Of a stretch of DNA of 38,870 nucleotides, positions 1 through 27,002 are shown piece by piece; within the stretch, counting starts at the first letter, position 1; every line of letters begins with the position of its first letter. A program made the position numbers and the translations under genes. Source of the stretch: Thermoproteota archaeon (GTDB taxonomy: Archaea > Korarchaeota > Korarchaeia > Korarchaeales > Korarchaeaceae); the NCBI GenBank assembly GCA_027491435.1, contig JAOZFG010000006.1:1-38870 (forward strand), read 5' to 3'. The notes under the pieces were generated by a model. The model was not told the DNA's origin. It saw only the letters and a list, made by a program, of their open reading frames with translations, and searched no databases.

Positions 1-902
1 TTGTAGAAAGGCTCCCTTAACATAACGGCCTTCTTGAATATTTCCTCTAGCTCCTCGTCGCTGGCCCCCATTCTCATAGCTGTTAGGAAATCCACCTTGT
101 CGTCGTCTCTCAGGAGGCACGTCTTGAAGTAGCCGTCATGGGTTATCCTTATCCTGGTACAGCTCATGCAGAAGCTCGGATTATCCACGTTCCTCACTAC
201 TTCAACAACCCCTCCGTTGGGCAGATAGTACCTAAACCTGCCGTGGAGCTCCCTCCTTTCAACCTTTACAGCGATCCTCCTAAGCTCCTCTTCAAGGCCC
301 TCTAGTGGGTAGTAGTACCTTTCGAACAGCTTTCTATCAGTGTAGAGCAGCTCTATGAGCTGAAGCTGTACCCCCATCTTGGAGAAGAATTTAATCGTAT
401 CCCATAGGTCGTCTGAGTTTACTCCCTTGAGCACAACCATGTCCACCTTGACAGGTTCTAATCCAGCCCTTTTAGCGGCCTTTATGGCCTCAATTCCCCT
501 GCTTAGTCCGTCAACCCCCGTTATAAATTCGTAAACATCTCTGTTTATGCTGTGCACGCTTATGTTTACCCTATCCAGCCCAGCCCTCTTCAAGTCCTCT
601 GCCAGCTCAGGGAGCCAGTACCCGTTGGTGACCATGGACACCTCCTCAGCGCCGGCCCTCCTTATGTTCCTGACCACCTCCACGATGTCTTCCCTGAGGA
701 GGGGTTCTCCCCCAGTTATCTTCACGGTCTTCACGTCGTGTTTGACCAGAACCCTAACTATCCTCCCTATCTCCTCTGGGGTCATCGCCCTGTCCGTAGG
801 CCTGTAACCTTCCCTGTGACAGAAGAAGCAGCTGTAGTTACACTCTGGCGTCACTGATATCCTCAAGTTGTTTACAGGCCTGCCCCACCTATCTCTAAGC
901 AT
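1..902 (-). CDS. moaA: GTP 3',8-cyclase MoaA (3' end runs off the window)
   Basis: Not in the ORF track. Manual translation from ATG at 902 gives MLRDRWGRPVNNLRISVTPECNYSCFFCHREG (radical SAM CxxxCxxC); a C-terminal FCMSCTRIR...KTCL cluster motif is also present. Overlaps the moaC stop. Confidence 0.93.
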   Translation of the reverse strand, partial: MLRDRWGRPVNNLRISVTPECNYSCFFCHREGYRPTDRAMTPEEIGRIVRVLVKHDVKTVKITGGEPLLREDIVEVVRNIRRAGAEEVSMVTNGYWLPELAEDLKRAGLDRVNISVHSINRDVYEFITGVDGLSRGIEAIKAAKRAGLEPVKVDMVVLKGVNSDDLWDTIKFFSKMGVQLQLIELLYTDRKLFERYYYPLEGLEEELRRIAVKVERRELHGRFRYYLPNGGVVEVVRNVDNPSFCMSCTRIRITHDGYFKTCLLRDDDKVDFLTAMRMGASDEELEEIFKKAVMLREPFY

Positions 903-16923: not shown

Positions 16924-18252
16924 TTGTGGAGAGTAGCCCTTATATCTCTAATTTTTCTAATTTTAAGTCAGGGATGGGTCGTAGTAATCGATAGGAATGG
17001 CTATGAGGAAGTTAAAGATATAGAGATTATAGACAATGGTTTAGTTGTCGTGGGCCACGTGGTCTACTCTAAACAGGTGGACGGTATCGTGCTCTTTCTT
17101 GATGATTCGGGCAGTCTAGAGAAGTATCTTAGGGTAGACGTTGGATATGATGAGTACCTCACGTCTATCTGCGATCTGGGAAATAGGATTGTCATAGCTG
17201 GGTATGTTAAGGGTAGGGAAAAGGCAGGCGTGATAGCCCTGAGCCTGAGCGGTAAGGGCGACCTCATTTGGGGAAGGATTTATAATGTTAAGGCTAAAGA
17301 TCTTAAAATATTCTCATGTAGTAGGCTCAACAATTACTTAGTGCTGACGGGAAGCGTGTCTACAGGAGGTGATATGAACGCACTCATAGCCTTCCTTAAG
17401 GAGGACGGATCTCTGGTTAACATGACCTCCTTTGGGACGAACCTAGTTGAATGGGTCAACTCAGCCTACTCCACTGGAGGTAAACTCTTCTTAGCTGGAG
17501 GGGCCCTGACTGACTCCTCGGCGGACTTATGGTTGGCCGACTTTAAGCGAGGCAGAGTTTATCTGTTTAGTGAGGAGGGCTGGCAAGAGGCGTACTCCGT
17601 TAACGTCAGAGGCGATAAGATCCTGTTAGTGGGATCTACCAGCGACGGAGGGTGGGACGTCACGGCTTTAATGATCAAGGGGGGAGAGATACTCTGGGGA
17701 AAGAGGTACGGAACTCCTTACATGGATTTGGGATACGATAGTTGGCTAGGAGACAGCATCTACATCACCGGAGAAGTCAGATGCTTCGGGGGCGGATGTA
17801 ACGCCCTGTTAATGGAACTGAATGAGGATGGAGGTTTGATGAGCTCAACGGAGGTTGGAGGAGAGAACATGGAAAGGGGATACGCCTTGGATTCTGATGG
17901 GGAAAGGGTTTTCATTGCGGGCTACTCCGACTCATTCAGCCTAGACGTGTGGGGCGGAATACTAGTGGTTTCGGGAAGGGGCGGGTGTAAATCTGAGGAA
18001 ATCAACGTTACCTCTTTTGATGAGAATTATGATAAAAGGGTCCTTGAAGCTCATGTTAAATTAATTGAATGGAATGAAGAAAAAACAAGAGTGAAACTGA
18101 GTCAAGAGAGCCCTCACGTCAGGAATCCATGTCAAACAGACTTAGATAGGTTAATGGAGATTGTGGTTCCTTTACTGGCAATTATGGCATTTATGATTAC
18201 AATATACCTGAGTTGGAGGTTAATATTCAAAAGGTCAGGAGAAAGCAGTTAG
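16924..18252 (+). CDS. Secreted, membrane-anchored beta-propeller-like repeat protein
   Basis: Signal peptide; repeated blades (WGRIY, WGKRYG..D.GY, I.IAGY/ITGE); C-terminal TM helix plus basic tail. Confidence 0.7.
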   Translation: MWRVALISLIFLILSQGWVVVIDRNGYEEVKDIEIIDNGLVVVGHVVYSKQVDGIVLFLDDSGSLEKYLRVDVGYDEYLTSICDLGNRIVIAGYVKGREKAGVIALSLSGKGDLIWGRIYNVKAKDLKIFSCSRLNNYLVLTGSVSTGGDMNALIAFLKEDGSLVNMTSFGTNLVEWVNSAYSTGGKLFLAGGALTDSSADLWLADFKRGRVYLFSEEGWQEAYSVNVRGDKILLVGSTSDGGWDVTALMIKGGEILWGKRYGTPYMDLGYDSWLGDSIYITGEVRCFGGGCNALLMELNEDGGLMSSTEVGGENMERGYALDSDGERVFIAGYSDSFSLDVWGGILVVSGRGGCKSEEINVTSFDENYDKRVLEAHVKLIEWNEEKTRVKLSQESPHVRNPCQTDLDRLMEIVVPLLAIMAFMITIYLSWRLIFKRSGESS

Positions 18253-18765
18253 AAACTTTGACAGAGCTCTCCTAATGTTACGACTAACGGTGGACACGTG
18301 AACGCCCAGTTCATTTGCTAATTCAGTAAGGGATGTCCCCCTTCCATTTATGTTAAATAGCCCCCTTTCCAGCGCCATCTTTATGTATTTTATCTCAGTT
18401 TCAGTTATCTTTATTCTTTTTGTTAGCTCAGCAAATGGAAAATCTTTTCTAAATTCATCCGGATCACCTATGATGGTAACCTTAAGCCTTTCATTTCCTA
18501 GATCAGATACGTGTATTAATGTATAATTCTTAAATGATGCGTTGGCAAATAGGCACCTTTTCGATTTAACAGCTACTATATTTCCCTTTTGTGCAATAAT
18601 TTCATCCTTTATCTGATGACCGTTTTCACCTAGGACCTCCAGCCACAATATGGCAGAATCCTCCCTCTTCTCTATAAATAAATGTCTAACTTTACCTTCT
18701 AAATCAGTGTAAGGGCAATCGGTGTTATGGTATTCTGGAATTTCGAAGACGTGAAGGCACACCAA
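18235..18765 (-). CDS. HTH transcriptional regulator (Bat/HTH_10-like C-terminal domain)
   Basis: C-terminal ITETE...ALERGLF...SLTELANELGVHVSTVSRNIRRA. Confidence 0.8.
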   Translation of the reverse strand: MVCLHVFEIPEYHNTDCPYTDLEGKVRHLFIEKREDSAILWLEVLGENGHQIKDEIIAQKGNIVAVKSKRCLFANASFKNYTLIHVSDLGNERLKVTIIGDPDEFRKDFPFAELTKRIKITETEIKYIKMALERGLFNINGRGTSLTELANELGVHVSTVSRNIRRALSKFLTAFS

Positions 18766-18827
18766 CTTACATACCCGTTTAGTAATATCAAGCTTAATTT
18801 AAATGTGTCATCTTTGAATGTGAAGCG

Positions 18828-19538
18828 ATGGCCAGACTGAAGCTAGCAGTACCCCTGGCCCTGCTGGTTGTTTTGGGATTAGCCCTAACTGTAAAGAAGG
18901 AAAGACGTGATGGGGCCGTGATAATCGATGGTTTGGCTTCGGACTACCCCAATCCTGAGCTGATAGAGAAATTGAAGGATTACCTGAGGAAGTCAGGATA
19001 TGAAAGGGTGGACGTCTATAATGGAAGGGAGGTCACCGTATCCCTTTACCAGGAGCTTCCCAAGAGGGGCTACAAGCTAATCCTGATAAGGGCTCATAGC
19101 GCCCCGGCTCCGAGCGGAGGAGGCACAGTGATTTTCACAGGAGAACCAGCTAACAGCTCCGCCTACATATTCGAGAGGATAAGTGGTTTCGTCGTGAAAG
19201 CTAGAACTTTGGAAGGCAATAGAACTTATTTCGCTGTAACTCCTAAGTTTTGGATGGAAAAGGCTAAGGGAAACTTTGACAGTGCAATAGTAGTCATGAT
19301 GAGCTGCTACGGGTTCCTGGATGATGTCCTTCCTAAGGTGTTCATCATGAAGGGGGCCTCCTACTACGTGGGGTGGGAGGAGAAGGTCTCCCTCACCTAC
19401 GTAGACGAAGCGGTCGAGGTCTTCGTTAAGAAGTTGTCAGAGGGAATGAGTATAGAAGATGCTGTGAAATACGTTAATGAGGTGCTTGGCCCAGACCCTT
19501 CCACCAACAGCTACATGAGGTACGCTAAGAGGCCTTGA
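18828..19538 (+). CDS. Membrane-anchored or secreted hypothetical protein, possible clan CD (caspase/gingipain-like) fold
   Basis: N-terminal hydrophobic helix; LILIRAHS and VVMMSC strands; GA..YVGW motif. Confidence 0.6.
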   Translation: MARLKLAVPLALLVVLGLALTVKKERRDGAVIIDGLASDYPNPELIEKLKDYLRKSGYERVDVYNGREVTVSLYQELPKRGYKLILIRAHSAPAPSGGGTVIFTGEPANSSAYIFERISGFVVKARTLEGNRTYFAVTPKFWMEKAKGNFDSAIVVMMSCYGFLDDVLPKVFIMKGASYYVGWEEKVSLTYVDEAVEVFVKKLSEGMSIEDAVKYVNEVLGPDPSTNSYMRYAKRP

Positions 19539-21143: not shown

Positions 21144-21923
21144 GCCGTAATCACTAGGAGTAACGTAAAAGGTCAACTTTGCCCTGTGATAATCCCTTAT
21201 GACTTGCCTAGCGGCCTCATCAACGTCTGGCTCCCTACCCCTAACCCAACCCCTCTTTACGGCCAGCGCCTCCAGTACTTTTACTGGATCCCTCTCATCT
21301 ATCCTGTAGGCTCTCCAAACTGATGAGGGGTCTACTTGCAGGGCTCTTTCAAGCAGTTTGACCGCTACCTCTATAGGATTCCTCATTTCCTCCGGAGGGA
21401 CCCCCCTCACAGCTATCTCTAGGGGATTGCCTTCAGCGGGAACTATGCCCGGAGAGTCAAGTATGTAGAGCTTGCTGTCTATTCTGTAAAGCTGAAAATG
21501 CCTGGTGTACCCTGGGTTACCCGGTATTGGGCTTGTTGAAGCTGAGCTCCTCCCCTTTAACACATTAATTATTGAGCTCTTACCGACTTTAGGGTATCCA
21601 GCTATTAGAGCTTTAACGGGAAGTTCTGGGGCCTCCCTCTTTATGAACCTCCTGAGCCTTAGGGTGCCCAACCTTTCCCTGGCGCTCACGTATATCGACT
21701 TGAGGCCCATAGAGTCGAACAATCTCTTCCACTCATCAAGCACGTTCTTAGGAACTAGGTCAGATTTATTCATCACCAGTATTAGCTTCTTTCCCTTCTC
21801 CCCGGCCATCCTCTCTAGCTTCTCGCTTCTAGTGGTCCAGGGATCTCTAGAGTCCAGCACCTCAATTACCATGTTTACCTGATCCATAGCCTTTGATAGA
21901 TCCTTCCACGTGGCTATCTTCAT
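21132..21923 (-). CDS. Circularly permuted ribosome-biogenesis GTPase (YlqF/RbgA family)
   Basis: Motif order NKSD (G4), SARE (G5), GYPKVGKS (G1), PGYT (G2), DSPG (G3). Confidence 0.9.
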   Translation of the reverse strand: MKIATWKDLSKAMDQVNMVIEVLDSRDPWTTRSEKLERMAGEKGKKLILVMNKSDLVPKNVLDEWKRLFDSMGLKSIYVSARERLGTLRLRRFIKREAPELPVKALIAGYPKVGKSSIINVLKGRSSASTSPIPGNPGYTRHFQLYRIDSKLYILDSPGIVPAEGNPLEIAVRGVPPEEMRNPIEVAVKLLERALQVDPSSVWRAYRIDERDPVKVLEALAVKRGWVRGREPDVDEAARQVIRDYHRAKLTFYVTPSDYGLEY

Positions 21924-22243
21924 TTTAACACGCTCATCAGCCTCTCCTTTATCATTTCCTTAGGAGGCCTGTCGTAAATGGAGCCCTTCCACTTGTAGAG
22001 CCTCGTGCATGAAGCCTTGTACTCTCCCCTATCCTTGAAGTTGGGGTCTAGGTCTTCCCCGTTTATCCTGATCGTGGGCACCCCCATGACCCTGTGTTGC
22101 CTGGCCTCATAATCGTTGGCTAACATAACCTCCTCTATTTCGTAATCCTCGACTCCCAGCTCGCTCAGTGCATCTTTAATATCTTTTATAATGGGATCTC
22201 TAGGACACTCTGGGGTATAGTAAAGCTGAATCTTAAGCCTCAT
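21920..22243 (-). CDS. Small thioredoxin-fold protein (DUF2703-like)
   Basis: YYTPECP, GVPTIRING.D and SCTRLY motifs. Confidence 0.7.
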   Translation of the reverse strand: MRLKIQLYYTPECPRDPIIKDIKDALSELGVEDYEIEEVMLANDYEARQHRVMGVPTIRINGEDLDPNFKDRGEYKASCTRLYKWKGSIYDRPPKEMIKERLMSVLK

Positions 22244-22275
22244 CGCTAATTCAACCGATGCACGAATTTAAATGT

Positions 22276-22698
22276 TTATTCATTCTTTTCCTCAGGCTCC
22301 TTTATTCCCAGGTACTGTCTGACCATCTTGTAATAGTTCTCGACGCTCCCGTATCTCTTCAGAAAGCTCTCGGCGATGTCGTACCCGAACTTCTTCTTGA
22401 ACTCCTCCCTGCCCTCAGGGGTCATGTCGAAGGGAGTCCACGGGGGGTACCACTCTATCTCCACCTCTACATCTTTAAGCTCGGGTATGGCCGCCTTTAA
22501 ACTGTCCTTAACCATTTGAGCCAACATCTGGTAGTACGGACAACCGGGAGCTGTCATGGTCATTCTAACCTTGAGGACGCCATCTTGAAGTTTTAGCTCC
22601 CTTATCAGCCCAAGGTCCACCACGTTAACTGGTATTTCGGGATCAAATACCATCTTGAGGGCTGCTAAGGCCTTAACTCTCACTTCTTCCTCGTTCAT
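22276..22698 (-). CDS. DUF59/SufT-like Fe-S cluster assembly factor
   Basis: VFDPEIPVNVVDLGLI, MTMTAPGCP and WYPPWTP..MT motifs. Confidence 0.92.
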   Translation of the reverse strand: MNEEEVRVKALAALKMVFDPEIPVNVVDLGLIRELKLQDGVLKVRMTMTAPGCPYYQMLAQMVKDSLKAAIPELKDVEVEIEWYPPWTPFDMTPEGREEFKKKFGYDIAESFLKRYGSVENYYKMVRQYLGIKEPEEKNE

Positions 22699-23009: not shown

Positions 23010-24956
23010 TTAATGCCTCCTACCGGCTAAGTATCCTAAAGCCAATCCCACCAACAACGGGAGGAAGGCCCCCATGACATAATTGATTAACTTCTCAGGG
23101 GCTCTTTTGGTCAACACTTTAGTTACAGTTTCCGTTTTAGTCTGGGTTTCGGTTATCGTGGTTGGCGAGCTCCTAGTAACCGTTTTTCCGCTGGCTTTCT
23201 CAGGTTGTTTATACTTGGTTATAGAGAGCATAATTAGCATCTGTGAGTGCGCTGAAGACATCTCGTAATAGGTTATAGCTCCGAAGACATCTTTTTGAAG
23301 CTCTAACTCAGATGCCGTCTCGTAGTAACTCAAAGCTAAGACGGGGACTACTCCCTTATTCAACAACTTCTTTATGGATGATGAGGCGACTCCCTTCACG
23401 GCATTTAGAGCCGCTAACGGGTCGCTGGTGAACAGTTGATGAATTGTAGTGGTCGCCTTAGCTAGGGACATGGCGGCCAACCCTATGGCCCCATAAGAGT
23501 CTCCTGAAGAGAGAGCTGAGTTAGCCATGTCCAAGTCAGCGTTTACGTCTGATAGAACGGATGAAGAAGATACCTCTGTGGCCAAGCTTAGGGCGTAGGA
23601 TATGACCCCCTCTGCCTCGTATATCATGGTGGATGCCACTTTTCTTAACCTATTCTGATCTACCTTGCCTTCCTTAGAGACGTTAAGTAGCCAAAGCCAG
23701 GTTTTGGCTGTTTCTGCCCTCCATATTGTGTAGGACAGTGTGTGTATAGCCCCCCAGCTGTCATAACCGTCCAACAGGTCTCCTCTAGATATCATTTCAG
23801 CTCCCTGCTTTAACGAGTTTCTGGCCGTGTAATACCTGACCTTAGCGGCCACTAGGGCCTCTAAACCGGATAATGAATCTGGTTTTGTCGAGTTAACTAG
23901 CTTGCCGACAGACTCTACTACAGAGGAAGCCTTGTCAGCTAGTTCCTCTACAGCCTTGTTGCCCTTTCTGACGTACATGGTAAGCCAGTAGGCGTATTCG
24001 GCTTCGTAAGCGGACTGGAACGCGAGGCTGGAAGCCGTGTACAGATTTCCTTCCTTCCTCTGATCACGCGCTTGCATGGCCAGGCTTTCTGAGTCTTTTA
24101 GGACTGATTTTATAGCCCTAGCCGATATTGGATCCACTCCCTTAGAGCTCAGAAGCTCCTCAACTTTAACTCTTAGATGGAATGACGCGTTGAGGTAATG
24201 TTCAACCCAGCCCTCTAGCAGGTCCCTTATGGATTCGGGAAACTCGAAGTTGGTGACAGTTGGTTTTGGGAACTCAACTCCTAAGAAGTACTTGGCGGCC
24301 TCGGCTATGGTCGATACTTCCTTCACCTCAACGCCCAAGCTCCTCCCCAGCTCTATCAGGTCGACAGTTTTTGTCTCCACAGTAGTTATCACCAGGGGCC
24401 CTATCTTCTTCCTTTTGGGGATTGTCTCCACAACCTTCCTCTGACCCGCAGGTATCAGGAATATTTTGGCACCTCCTTCGGCCGCGGCCTTCAGCTTCTC
24501 TGGTATGCCTCCCACGGGACCTACTGTTCCATCTGGATTCACCATGCCGGTCATTATTACGTCTTTCCTCATCTGCTTACCCAAGATCGCCGCTATCGTG
24601 GCTACTGTCATGACGGCTCCAGCGCTAGGCCCTCCTATTATCATGCTGTCGGATTCCAAGCTGTAGTAGAAGTTGTACGACATGGGGTCCACTCCCAGCA
24701 GGTTGCAGGCTACCAGAGCAGCTGTCCTGGCAGCCCCCTGGGTATCCAGCTGTGTCAGAGGGTCTGCCGAGAAATACACCTTACCAGTACCAGAAGTCAC
24801 TTCCACCGTCAAATTGCTAAGAGAACCCTTCATTACTCCCTCAGGCGTCTGATAAACTGCTGGAACTTTTGCTATAACGGCTGGAGAGCCGGAAACTTGA
24901 ATAGATGGTAGAACGAGCATCGCCAATAGGAGAGCTAGAGTTCTCGACGACATCAC
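23010..24956 (-). CDS. Secreted, membrane-anchored S16 Lon-like serine protease (no ATPase domain)
   Basis: Signal peptide; Ser-Lys dyad (GGPSAG, VGGIPEK); TGMVNPDG; helical C-domain, Thr-rich linker, TM helix and RRH. Confidence 0.88.
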   Translation of the reverse strand: MMSSRTLALLLAMLVLPSIQVSGSPAVIAKVPAVYQTPEGVMKGSLSNLTVEVTSGTGKVYFSADPLTQLDTQGAARTAALVACNLLGVDPMSYNFYYSLESDSMIIGGPSAGAVMTVATIAAILGKQMRKDVIMTGMVNPDGTVGPVGGIPEKLKAAAEGGAKIFLIPAGQRKVVETIPKRKKIGPLVITTVETKTVDLIELGRSLGVEVKEVSTIAEAAKYFLGVEFPKPTVTNFEFPESIRDLLEGWVEHYLNASFHLRVKVEELLSSKGVDPISARAIKSVLKDSESLAMQARDQRKEGNLYTASSLAFQSAYEAEYAYWLTMYVRKGNKAVEELADKASSVVESVGKLVNSTKPDSLSGLEALVAAKVRYYTARNSLKQGAEMISRGDLLDGYDSWGAIHTLSYTIWRAETAKTWLWLLNVSKEGKVDQNRLRKVASTMIYEAEGVISYALSLATEVSSSSVLSDVNADLDMANSALSSGDSYGAIGLAAMSLAKATTTIHQLFTSDPLAALNAVKGVASSSIKKLLNKGVVPVLALSYYETASELELQKDVFGAITYYEMSSAHSQMLIMLSITKYKQPEKASGKTVTRSSPTTITETQTKTETVTKVLTKRAPEKLINYVMGAFLPLLVGLALGYLAGRRH

Positions 24957-25042: not shown

Positions 25043-25480
25043 ATGGCCCCGATGTGGAAGCCAAGGAGGAAAATACCCCTAAGAGTTGAAGATATAATGA
25101 GTAAGCCTCCAATAACGGTGACCACTAACTCCACAGTAGATGACGCCGTTAAGTTAATGTGGGAGAAGCAGATCGGCAGCGTGCTGGTAATTGACGACGA
25201 GGGCAAGTTGAGGGGGATAGTGACCCAGAGGGATGTCCTCTACGCCGGCTACAGGGGACTCTGTGGTAAGGGCATACTGGTAACTGACATAATGACTGAA
25301 AATCCCATAACTGTTAAACCGGATGACACCATAGAAGAGGCCGTGAGAAAGATGAGGGAGGCTGACGTCTCACACCTGCCGGTGGTGGACAATGAAGGGA
25401 AGCCCGTGGGAGTCCTATCAATGAGGGATATAATGGACGCGTCAACCTTGCTGCTCAGAGTGTTCTTAGGGGGTGAATGA
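25043..25480 (+). CDS. CBS-domain pair protein
   Basis: Two CBS repeats (GIVTQRDV, GVLSMRDI). Start reassigned to ATG 25043 (AGGTGA SD upstream); the longer ORF overlaps the protease start. Confidence 0.88.
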   Translation: MAPMWKPRRKIPLRVEDIMSKPPITVTTNSTVDDAVKLMWEKQIGSVLVIDDEGKLRGIVTQRDVLYAGYRGLCGKGILVTDIMTENPITVKPDDTIEEAVRKMREADVSHLPVVDNEGKPVGVLSMRDIMDASTLLLRVFLGGE

Positions 25481-25894
25481 GAGCTCCCTCAACCTCGCCT
25501 CAATGTATTTGAGCCTTTCCTCAATCCACCTTTTTCTCTCCCTTAACATCTCCACATCGTCTTTAGGGACAACTGATTTTATCGCCTCATCAGCGGGTAT
25601 CCCGGGGCTTACTTCCTTGTAGGAAATGCCTAAGCTCAACAAGGCTCCCTGAGCGTTTGGCCCTATCATGCTGGCCACTATGACGTTGACGCCTTGGTCG
25701 TAGAGGAACTGTATGGCCATGGGTCCGGCCCCTCCTGGGGAGTTGAAATAGGGGTTCCTGATTAGCTTCCAGCTGGTTATCTTTCCGTCCGCTAGGTCTG
25801 CTATTAGGAAGTAAGGTGCCCTGCCAAAAAGTGATGAGACGGGCGAGTTAAGCCCTCTATCCTCGTCACAGGGAACCGCTACCCTCACCTTCAA
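25466..25894 (-). CDS. NifB/NifX-family (FeMo-co/IssA-like) protein with C-terminal coiled coil
   Basis: VAVP, S.VS..FGRAPYF, NP....GGAG and IGPNA...L...GI motifs; tail EMLRERKRWIEERLKYIEARLREL. Confidence 0.85.
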   Translation of the reverse strand: MKVRVAVPCDEDRGLNSPVSSLFGRAPYFLIADLADGKITSWKLIRNPYFNSPGGAGPMAIQFLYDQGVNVIVASMIGPNAQGALLSLGISYKEVSPGIPADEAIKSVVPKDDVEMLRERKRWIEERLKYIEARLRELSFTP

Positions 25895-26300
25895 GCTCCC
25901 TTAACCTCCTCTTCAATTCCTCTAACTCCCTCTCTAGTTCCTCCTTCTCTCTGAGTAATGCTTCTCTTTCCTCGTTAGGATCGTAGTACTGGTAGGGGTA
26001 TCTCCAAGTAGTCCATGGGCCGCCGAGGATCTCCCAAGCATGTACGATCCTGCCTGATGGATCCATGTAAAAGGCCATGGGCCCTACACCACTCCTGCAT
26101 GGACCTATATACCTGTAGCCTCTTCTAGCGGCGTATTCTACCGCTGGATAGCCTATAATTGGCCCCCACGGTCCGGGACCCCATCCAGGTCCCCAGCCAG
26201 CTCCCCAACCTCCGCCCCATCCTGCTCCACCCCGGCCTCCGCCCCAACCTCCTTTCCTACCTCCTCTCCACCTTCTACCTCTGCCGCCCCATCCGAACAT
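25866..26300 (-). CDS. Gly/Trp/Arg-rich protein with C-terminal coiled coil (DUF5320-like)
   Basis: Low-complexity GW/GR N-terminus; YRYIGPCRSG.GP.AFY core; EEREALLREKEELERELEELKRRLREL tail. Confidence 0.8.
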   Translation of the reverse strand: MFGWGGRGRRWRGGRKGGWGGGRGGAGWGGGWGAGWGPGWGPGPWGPIIGYPAVEYAARRGYRYIGPCRSGVGPMAFYMDPSGRIVHAWEILGGPWTTWRYPYQYYDPNEEREALLREKEELERELEELKRRLRELEGEGSGSL

Positions 26301-26310
26301 GGTCTCACCA

Positions 26311-26337
26311 TGATATAGGTATCAAAGTAACCTATAT
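26311..26337. promoter_or_regulatory. Candidate PadR operator in the divergent promoter
   Basis: Palindrome TGATA-TAGG-TATCA (26311-26324) overlaps the inverted repeat ATATAGGT-N9-ACCTATAT (26313-26337) and the TATA-like TATATAA. Confidence 0.5.
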
Positions 26338-26367
26338 AATTGTATTGCTCCCCTGTGAGGTCGCGAG

Positions 26368-26727
26368 ATGGGTCGCAGGTGGAGGTGGGGAAAGCGAAGA
26401 GAATGGGGCATTTCAGGCCTCTACCCTACCCTAGTTCTGCTTATGATCTCTAAGGGGATAACTCATGGATACGACATAAGGAGGAAAATAGAAGAGGCAA
26501 TAGGTGCTCCTCTACCTGACGGCTTCATCTACGTTACCCTAGCCAGGCTGGAGGCTTCAGGTCTCATAATCTCCACGAAGGTTGTTGGGGATCCTCGAGG
26601 GAAGAAGCTCTACGATCTAACCCCTCTGGGCAGGCAGGAACTAGCTATGAGGATAAATGAGCTAAAAAAATTAAAATATTTAATAGATTGGATGATCTCG
26701 TTTTATGAATCAGGGGCGGGTCTCTAG
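26368..26727 (+). CDS. PadR-family transcriptional regulator
   Basis: HGYDI, G.IY..L.RLE..GLI and KKLY.LT..GR motifs. Confidence 0.9.
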   Translation: MGRRWRWGKRREWGISGLYPTLVLLMISKGITHGYDIRRKIEEAIGAPLPDGFIYVTLARLEASGLIISTKVVGDPRGKKLYDLTPLGRQELAMRINELKKLKYLIDWMISFYESGAGL

Positions 26728-26940
26728 CTCTTTCAGCCTCTTGTCTATCTCTTCCAGCCTCTTAAGCAAGTACTCCTTTTCCCTCTTAAGGTACTCCCTC
26801 TCAACCTCAGGAGTAATCCATGAGCTCAACCAATAAGGCCACCATGGCACAGGAATCGTCCCGTATCTGCTCAACCAGTTGGCCGCCCAGAACCAGCACC
26901 AACCTCTACCCCAAGGCCTGCCCCACCAAGCCCACCACAT
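26710..26940 (-). CDS. Small Trp-rich protein with C-terminal coiled coil (DUF5320-like)
   Basis: MWWAWWGRPWGRGWCW...TPEVEREYLKREKEYLLKRLEEIDKRLKEL. Start set at ATG 26940 (GGGGTGGGAG SD). Confidence 0.75.
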   Translation of the reverse strand: MWWAWWGRPWGRGWCWFWAANWLSRYGTIPVPWWPYWLSSWITPEVEREYLKREKEYLLKRLEEIDKRLKELETRP

Positions 26941-27002
26941 GCTCCCACCCCTTATATTGATACCCATGTAAAAGATATATATGTGTTAGCTTCAGAAGGC
27001 CT

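Follow-up and report, generated by a model that had tools for sequence, protein, structure and literature searches.

A PadR-linked gene cluster for a NifX-type protein and two DUF5320-type proteins with a common C-terminal helix in a korarchaeal genome

The stretch of DNA analysed here, called the window, covers 38,870 nt of contig JAOZFG010000006.1 from a korarchaeal genome (assembly GCA_027491435.1). It carries a compact cluster of real genes for three small proteins, NifX-CC, LONG and SHORT, and a PadR-family regulator (Table 1). We tentatively read this cluster, with a confidence just short of even, as a three-subunit, PadR-controlled variant of the NifX-DUF5320 (IssA-like) module with which anaerobes would hold anionic iron-sulfur (Fe-S) species. 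The identity of the module is well supported and its resemblance to IssA is real. For the hetero-assembly of the three proteins, structure prediction provides weak support; the nature of the ligand, a role in storage and the way the genes are regulated are what we infer from these comparisons. Judged by sequence, the new elements appear to be a NifX protein with the helix only, a LONG subfamily with a conserved Cys/His core, and a PadR with an N-terminal arm accompanied by a palindrome in the divergent promoter.

The common helix and the domains of the cluster proteins

A hidden Markov model (HMM) of the helix was trained on the 38 C-terminal residues of 17 proteins of the LONG and SHORT families, including those of the window and no NifX protein, and was run over the 10,927 stop-to-stop frames of at least 50 aa in the genome. 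SHORT (1.3e-15) and LONG (1.4e-11) were followed by NifX-CC (1.7e-7, 30.1 bits), and the next frame scored 0.14 (11.1 bits). As read by eye, hydrophobic residues are spaced alike in the three helices (7-4-3-4-3), and the core position that is skipped holds a polar residue. On this ranking the helix common to NifX-CC, LONG and SHORT is specific, beyond chance. The initial annotation had seen one type of coiled coil at the end of three small proteins; the stretches it quoted are the exact C-termini, and the third rank of NifX-CC bears out that they belong together.

The Pfam family Nitro_FeMo-Co (PF02579) matches NifX-CC with an E-value of 1e-16 and 61.4 bits (cut-off 26.3), residues 16-108 aligning with positions 2-92 of the 94 in the profile. 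Comparison with the related protein P0002 suggests that translation of NifX-CC probably starts at the GTG at 25888. Its remaining part, residues 109-142, is helical, with 0% Gly and 9% aromatic residues, and thus carries no Gly/Arg/Trp tail; it gives a partial DUF5320 match of 17.3 bits (residues 102-138 on profile positions 63-99) restricted to the helix part. SHORT is a DUF5320 (PF17253) protein by its score of 30.5 bits against a cut-off of 27. LONG falls marginally under the same cut-off with 26.2 bits, its relative P0122 scores 32.5 bits, and the ESM-Atlas clusters nearest to LONG are DUF5320 (score 0.89, taken as a lead only). The regulator belongs to the PadR family (PF03551, 51.9 bits, cut-off 27). 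A word-based search with NifX-CC alone returned 3 proteins, NifX-CC itself among them.

LONG and SHORT, the Gly/Trp/Arg proteins, contain exactly one Cys each, and this residue is invariant among the aligned relatives (C68 of LONG in 26/26, C24 of SHORT in 9/9). The three proteins are therefore as the initial annotation had described them, one with a NifX-type domain and two with Gly/Trp/Arg segments and a single Cys; Pfam and the helix HMM agree with its view that the domain and the cationic-aromatic segments sit on separate chains marked by one specific helix.

Table 1. Coordinates of the cluster features and of one neighbouring gene in the window
Feature	Coordinates	Strand	Length	Description
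NifX-CC	25466-25894	-	142 aa	PF02579 plus C-terminal DUF5320-type helix
NifX-CC, residues ~4-108				NifX-type (IPR003731/PF02579) domain
NifX-CC, helix	~25469-25570	-	34 residues	Joined directly to the domain
LONG	25866-26300	-	144 aa	Gly/Trp/Arg-rich, DUF5320-like; overlaps start of NifX-CC
LONG, residues 1-55	26136-26300	-		Disordered Gly/Trp/Arg segment
LONG, residues 56-93				Helix and three-strand core, followed by aromatic/Pro linker
LONG, residues 109-144	25869-25976	-		Helix
LONG, Cys68	26097-26099	-		Conserved residue
LONG, His87	26040-26042	-		Conserved residue
Palindrome TAGGTATC-AAA-GTAACCTA	26316-26334			Candidate PadR operator in the 67-bp divergent LONG/PadR region
PadR-family regulator	26368-26727	+	119 aa	Winged helix
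PadR, N-terminal arm	26368-26415	+	16 residues	Arg/Trp/Gly arm
SHORT	26710-26967	-	85 aa	DUF5320; convergent with PadR, 18-nt overlap of PadR 3' end
SHORT, residues 1-50				13 Trp and GRGWC motif
SHORT, Cys24	26896-26898	-		Invariant Cys of the GRGWC motif
SHORT, residues 51-85	26713-26817	-		Helix
DUF59 gene (FeS_assembly_P, PF01883)	22276-22698	-		71.8 bits; 2.8 kb from the module; context only

Conservation of the unit and its wider family

The phylum was sampled with 43 species genomes: the genus of the window (g1, 21 genomes), g2 (5), g3 (5), g4 (1), the sister genus g5 (4) and five other genera (7). As judged by the LONG profile, full LONG is present in 19 of the 43 genomes, with 10/21 in g1, 4/5 in g2, 4/5 in g3, where it is a shorter form of 103-107 aa, and 1/1 in g4; none was found in the four g5 genomes nor in the seven genomes of the five other genera. 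All 4 g5 genomes, which are without LONG, encode a fused NifX-DUF5320 protein of 192-201 aa. A NifX gene lies at most two genes downstream of LONG in 16/16 loci of the phylum, and the genes of LONG and NifX-CC share 4 nt in most relatives. In a first set of seven loci with full LONG, orthologs of PadR, LONG and NifX-CC occur together in six, the seventh being a contig fragment, and the PadR orthologs adjoining LONG were recovered with phmmer E-values of 1e-41 to 1e-49. The unit of the relatives stands in another neighbourhood, with an acylphosphatase-like gene (named by eye) beside PadR; its occurrence in different neighbourhoods indicates that PadR-LONG-NifX-CC moves as a module. The SHORT gene adjoins the unit in the genome of the window, in g2 and in g4, and lies on another contig in most other g1 genomes. 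Of the co-localisation of NifX, DUF5320 and PadR genes, which the initial annotation had suggested surveying across archaea, the full unit recurs within this phylum, with NifX following LONG in 16/16 loci; elsewhere a NifX gene follows the LONG-type gene in 29/64.

The regulator is conserved together with its arm. The Arg/Trp/Gly arm is found on 1 of the 5 PadR paralogs of the genome and recurs in the orthologs of relatives. In the 67-bp spacer between LONG and PadR, the palindrome overlaps TATA-like elements; it is the only exact match in the window to the derived pattern. Seven same-genus sequences keep it in the form TTATAGGTTAC-nn-TG-n-TA-y-CTA, and two from g2 do so less well. We consider it a candidate operator of PadR. 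The PadR adjacency and the conserved candidate operator are in line with the PadR control that had been proposed at the outset. The same annotation called the module PadR-flanked, which holds for the presence of a PadR gene and not for its placement, since a single copy lies between LONG and SHORT rather than one on each side.

Fused relatives give a second view of the same parts. In an alignment that includes them (A3), the helix of NifX-CC is homologous to that of longer fused proteins, the linker between domain and helix ranging from 0 residues in the window to about 80. In these proteins the NifX domain is separated from the helix by a Pro-rich stretch and by repeats of Gly/Arg/Trp or Gly/Arg/Met. 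The three that were scanned, of which two are g5 proteins and the third belongs to another family of the phylum, lie over both Pfam cut-offs (PF02579 81-91 bits, PF17253 31-45 bits). By our count, 72 of the best 120 listed matches to the A3 profile, from Bathyarchaeota, Asgard, Acetothermia and Caldiserica, carry both PF17253 and PF02579, a ranking that favours fused forms since the profile itself holds fused rows. Two metagenome proteins of 330-340 aa, P0004 and P0043, combine a NifX domain, a Gly/Arg tail, the helix and a second NifX domain on one chain.

A tree of NifX domains from the phylum (48 rows, drawn with a midpoint root, domain matches shorter than 85 residues dropped) places the NifX-CC of g1, g2 and g4 in one clade (91/83). 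The fused proteins of g5 and g10 form another (99/96), which groups with the Gly/Arg/Met-tailed NifX of g3 and g6 (89/81). A recent fission of a fused gene therefore finds no support in this tree, in which the window's own row has a long branch: NifX-CC is not next to the fused clade, and 'split' denotes an architecture here and not a demonstrated fission event. From this topology the family looks like the product of old modular shuffling rather than of a recent split. The NifX-CC of the window has lost the Pro-rich linker kept by all its same-genus orthologs, and P0002 is its sole close relative (84% identity).

Relatives of LONG are rare: a set of 1.84 billion representatives yielded 80 matches at E <= 0.001, of which 8 reached E <= 1e-10. 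P0189 and P0196, repeat proteins that align over a short stretch only, were set aside from these matches. In the family, a linker and the helix come after the motif GY-x-Y-[IV]-G-P-C-R-C-G-x-G-P-x-A-F-Y ... G-x-[IV]-V-H-A-[WS], and Y64, G66, C68, G71, A76, H87 and A88 are invariant in 26/26 sequences. The AlphaFold model of LONG (26-row alignment, mean predicted local distance difference test score, pLDDT, of 69) predicts residues 1-45 as disordered, 46-59 as a helix, 63-87 as three short strands (pLDDT 76-89) and 108-142 as a helix (pLDDT 93-98). A fold search with this model returned nothing at E <= 0.001, the top row being SSSCA1 with E 0.46.

A scan of 185,579 species genomes for the LONG core gave 80 loci, 16 in this phylum and 64 elsewhere, the latter in Baldr-, Odin- and Asgardarchaeota, Aquificota, Caldisericota, Aminicenantes, Omnitrophota, WOR-3, Caldatribacterium, Methanococcales, Thermoplasmata and ethane-oxidising archaea. 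In 29/64 of the non-phylum loci, a NifX gene was found at most two genes downstream of the LONG-type gene, and 3/64 end before a downstream gene; one more NifX gene was recognised via Pfam. Pfam was run on 128 of the 169 candidate neighbours of this family. Among these, Mrp/NBP35-type ATPases (PF10609) occur in 9 loci, DsrE in 6, and NifU_N and rhodanese in 1 each. The gene directly upstream of the LONG-type gene encodes a DUF134 regulator in 14 loci and a PadR in 7, and all 7 of these bacterial PadRs carry a comparable Trp/Gly/Arg/Lys arm. In 4/4 genomes of g5, a DUF59 gene directly precedes the fused gene, along with a ferredoxin-bearing protein. The Mrp/NBP35, DsrE, NifU_N and rhodanese neighbours, the DUF59 genes of g5 and a PF04060 gene beside a SHORT homolog (see below) point to Fe-S and sulfur handling as the context of the family.

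Several variants were observed along the way. A further DUF5320-like type of the phylum (L044:6582-6905, L053:5555-5935, L054:1493-1855 and L057:5805-6101), encoded near NifX genes, has the conserved N-terminus YRWRRMYY-TG-PGW-RFG-SPGW-GRSP-G-PP, a Pro-rich linker, the same helix and zero Cys. In g3, three NifX proteins (L044:3601-4020, L045:7388-7837 and L047:7530-7973) have a short Gly/Arg/Met tail (GRGMGRGMG...) and no helix; their genes come straight after that of a helix-bearing NifX, which puts both tail styles in one operon. In a same-genus genome, L014:1012-1368 encodes a 'putative Fe-S cluster' protein (PF04060) with an Arg/Trp/Gly-rich N-terminus, adjoining a SHORT homolog and a TauE/SafE exporter; with this protein as the one query, no counterpart was found in the genome of the window. 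Outside the phylum, seven loci of Aquificota and unclassified bacteria (L089, L092, L099, L105, L114, L123 and L124) have an armed PadR gene directly followed by the LONG-type gene and no NifX in the fetched flanks, which looks like a free-standing two-gene module. In Methanococcales (L125-L147), the LONG-type gene is followed by an unannotated open reading frame (ORF) of 55-70 aa, with no NifX neighbour, and the neighbours Memo, DeoC and TatD look unrelated.

Resemblance to IssA and the case for joint assembly

As described by Vaccaro et al. 2017 (PMC5524996), the 179-aa IssA protein of Pyrococcus furiosus (PF2025) combines an IPR003731 domain (109 residues) with a tail of 70 residues. This tail has a Pro-rich start and then turns cationic, aromatic and Gly-rich; it contains the one Cys, and no structure is predicted for it. 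In the same paper, Trp, Gly and Arg are said to predominate in the long-tailed relatives, and MTH1175 is placed among IssA-type proteins. From this source, the tail has 14 aromatic residues in 70 (20%), 15 Gly (21%), 7 cationic residues (10%), 1 Cys and an isoelectric point (pI) of 10.7. Residues 1-108 of LONG have 20% aromatic residues, 30% Gly, 12% Arg and Lys, 1 Cys and a pI of 10.3, and residues 1-50 of SHORT 32%, 14%, 8%, 1 Cys and a pI of 10.8. The IssA-like character that the initial annotation gave to these segments is upheld by composition, pI and single Cys, a likeness measured against the published composition of the tail.

The domain itself lacks a conserved Cys in NifX-CC, as is reported for IssA. 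Among solved structures its best relative is MTH1175 (1EO1, E 1.3e-30), one of the IssA-type proteins of that paper. The arrangement differs. In IssA the tail is on the domain's own chain; NifX-CC has none, the segment being found on LONG and SHORT, and the single Cys in a tail of high pI is thus present in trans, as C68 of LONG and C24 of SHORT. Here there are three chains, a PadR regulator and a folded Cys/His core in LONG. The conserved amphipathic helix is a further difference, since the tail of IssA is described as having no predicted secondary structure.

The fused PF02579 and PF17253 proteins are a second comparison, with the same NifX subfamily, a C-terminal helix and a Gly/Arg/aromatic segment, and they occur in the same archaeal family (g5) and widely elsewhere. 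They differ in having one chain instead of three, the g5 forms are without the Cys/His core, and they are not sister to NifX-CC in the tree.

The IPR003731 domain in IssA, ORP, NifX and MrpORP binds anionic iron-sulfur or metal-sulfide species. IssA of the P. furiosus type binds thioferrate in large particles and is sulfur-induced. In the arrangement we propose, NifX-CC would provide this cluster-binding domain, and LONG and SHORT the disordered cationic, aromatic, Gly-rich segment with the only conserved Cys of the system, LONG adding a small Cys/His beta-core. The common four-heptad amphipathic helix would bundle the three proteins into a hetero-oligomer, in which the domain and the cationic matrix may jointly hold, store or hand on anionic Fe-S species, such as a thioferrate-like polymer or clusters. 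PadR would repress the overlapping divergent promoters through its candidate operator, and its arm might make it responsive to the assembly's state.

The pairing of NifX-CC (17-row alignment) with residues 50-144 of LONG (26 rows) was examined by complex prediction. The score was 0.57 (runs of 0.58, 0.56 and 0.57), with a contact agreement of at least 56% and a partner pLDDT of at least 58; the best of 3 controls scored 0.00, and the verdict was weak support. In the calibration of this tool, 116 of 157 solved complexes and 2 of 215 mismatched pairs reach the mark, 18 of the 157 and both passing mismatches doing so at 0.60 or below, so that a pass at such a score is more often wrong than right unless the pairing was likely beforehand. 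We take the prediction as a mild, weakly supportive increment for hetero-assembly. Of the initial proposal that the proteins co-assemble through the shared helix, the predicted NifX-CC/LONG pair thus gives the LONG part a weak footing; the likeness of the helices, from which the proposal started, can also be accounted for by common descent from a NifX-DUF5320 protein.

Several observations weigh against our reading. The verdict on the complex is weak by the tool's own calibration, and its controls were unrelated proteins rather than other amphipathic helices, so that a similar score might come from any pair of such helices. The homology of the helices would follow from their descent from a NifX-DUF5320 protein, with no need for hetero-assembly. 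The bacterial NifX proteins that adjoin LONG relatives are 125-138 aa long and helix-less, which indicates that the NifX/LONG partnership does not generally depend on a shared helix, and four g1 genomes, all without LONG, pair a helix-less NifX with another DUF5320 type. No NifX was found near the LONG-type gene in 35/64 non-phylum loci, including all 7 PadR-paired and the Methanococcales loci; LONG-type proteins can therefore function without an adjacent NifX. In the own genus, the second Cys of CRCG is replaced by Ser and a frequent His is lost, which weakens a metal-site reading of the LONG core. The NifX-CC of the window sits on a very long branch of the tree (1.53 changes per column, median 0.073). 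Upstream of SHORT, no operator-like site was found within 3 mismatches. Finally, experimental data on DUF5320 proteins, or anything related to this system, are absent from the titles and abstract openings returned by our literature search for DUF5320, and, judged from the listing, none of the items listed for DUF134 concerns this system.

The strongest of the other explanations, possible although we think it rather unlikely, is that each helix self-associates only, the proteins being independent homo-oligomers whose likeness is due to shared ancestry, with no joint particle. It would account for the bacterial LONG-type proteins that retain the helix beside a helix-less NifX, and for the location of SHORT on a contig separate from LONG and NifX-CC in most same-genus genomes. 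The heptad register is nevertheless identical in the three helices, LONG and NifX-CC are translationally coupled, and the hetero pair, with weak support, is predicted at 0.57 versus 0.00. Somewhat less probable still, and to our mind unlikely, the system would be a carrier or maturation factor rather than a store, with the DUF5320 proteins as adaptors or chaperones delivering a cluster to targets. The domain leans this way in part: ORP (2WFB, E 2.1e-23) is its second-best relative among solved structures, and its sole NCBIfam match is the NifX-like part of MrpORP, at 27.8 bits against a cut-off of 450. The available part of a study on the ORP complex of Desulfovibrio vulgaris (Orp8, MrpORP; PMC6345978) describes a NifX-like single-domain protein within a multi-protein Fe-S/metal-sulfide complex, in which ORP binds a Mo-Cu sulfide cluster non-covalently and MrpORP transfers clusters, and the Mrp/NBP35 ATPases neighbouring the wider LONG family in 9 loci are a further likeness. 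The same part describes no DUF5320 component for ORP. In the window, however, no Orp3/Orp4-type MinD ATPase (MinD-ferredoxin) or Mrp gene lies beside the cluster, and the long disordered cationic-aromatic segments are closer to the storage tail of IssA than to any known carrier.

A reading centred on regulation appears distinctly unlikely to us. Here the Cys/His core of LONG-type proteins would sense sulfide, metal or redox state and modulate PadR or DUF134, NifX being one of several regulated cargos. The 21 loci with a regulator directly upstream of the LONG-type gene (14 DUF134 and 7 PadR), the lack of NifX in the fetched flanks of the 7 PadR-paired loci and the resemblance of the PadR arm to LONG-type N-termini are in keeping with it, but autoregulated operons commonly start with their regulator, which makes adjacency a weak argument, and NifX is directly downstream in 45/80 loci. 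Fused NifX-DUF5320 proteins are common, which argues that the DUF5320 part acts on the NifX domain. That these are merely nucleic-acid-binding or membrane-active Arg/Gly/Trp proteins with no Fe-S link (RGG-like condensate formers or interfacial Trp-rich segments) could be suspected from composition alone and from the disorder of LONG residues 1-45; the invariant Cys of the family and its consistent linkage or fusion to NifX domains and to Fe-S and sulfur genes across phyla make this very improbable.

A bolder extension of the IssA-like module that we prefer is improbable as it stands. The DUF5320 helix might act as a docking module for an Fe-S mineral-protein particle of adjustable composition, with NifX as nucleator and interchangeable cationic-aromatic matrix subunits. 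The PadR arm would partition into, or be titrated by, the loaded matrix, so that the fullness of the store sets its expression; such a system would be an analogue of the polyhydroxybutyrate (PHB) repressors working on an inorganic Fe-S polymer, shared from this phylum to Aquificota. PhaQ (TIGR02719) is a PHB-responsive repressor that works by granule titration, a PadR-family repressor encoded beside storage-inclusion genes. The PadR of the window scores 28.4 bits on this family, far under the cut-off of 139, and the parallel with PhaQ is an analogy only.

Surroundings of the cluster and significance

The genome (1.64 Mb in 43 contigs, 99.5% complete) has five NifX-type paralogs. A DUF5320 match on C5 belongs to a generic 166-aa coiled-coil protein and was rejected as a second cluster, and another on C17 sits in a 504-aa frame; this last frame aside, the module appears from these matches to be the sole true DUF5320 cluster of the genome. 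Its near flanks encode a CBS pair, a DUF167 protein and an HD hydrolase, and farther off lie a Lon_C membrane protein, glutamine synthetase and DUF59. The initial annotation had noted a DUF59 Fe-S factor about 3 kb away: its position proved correct, but the linkage is not conserved in split clusters, DUF59 being at least 15 kb off or on another contig in the others.

Other features of the window were noted in passing. The DUF59 gene is followed on the same strand by a gene for a thioredoxin-like DUF2703 protein (21920-22698 for the two), possibly a small Fe-S/thiol pair. At 23010-24956, a 648-aa protein has a signal- or anchor-like N-terminus, a C-terminal hydrophobic segment and a Lon_C domain (51.5 bits) without an ATPase domain. 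The stretch 18001-19000 has a G+C content of 0.39, compared with about 0.50 elsewhere; it covers an HTH_10 regulator gene (18235-18765) and reaches the start of a 236-aa ORF (18828-19538) with no Pfam match.

To our knowledge, no biological iron-sulfur (thioferrate) store other than IssA has been described, and IssA itself is known from one organism; DUF5320 is a widespread family for which we know of no assigned function or experimental datum. Together with the fused and split relatives, the cluster connects DUF5320 with an IssA-type tail. It offers small, separately expressible parts, namely a domain, two tails, a shared helix, a repressor and a candidate operator, together with two invariant candidate ligand residues, Cys68 and His87 of LONG, and with Cys24 of SHORT. 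Whether protein-bound Fe-S storage exists beyond Thermococcales, what the tail does and how such a store may be regulated thereby become testable questions.

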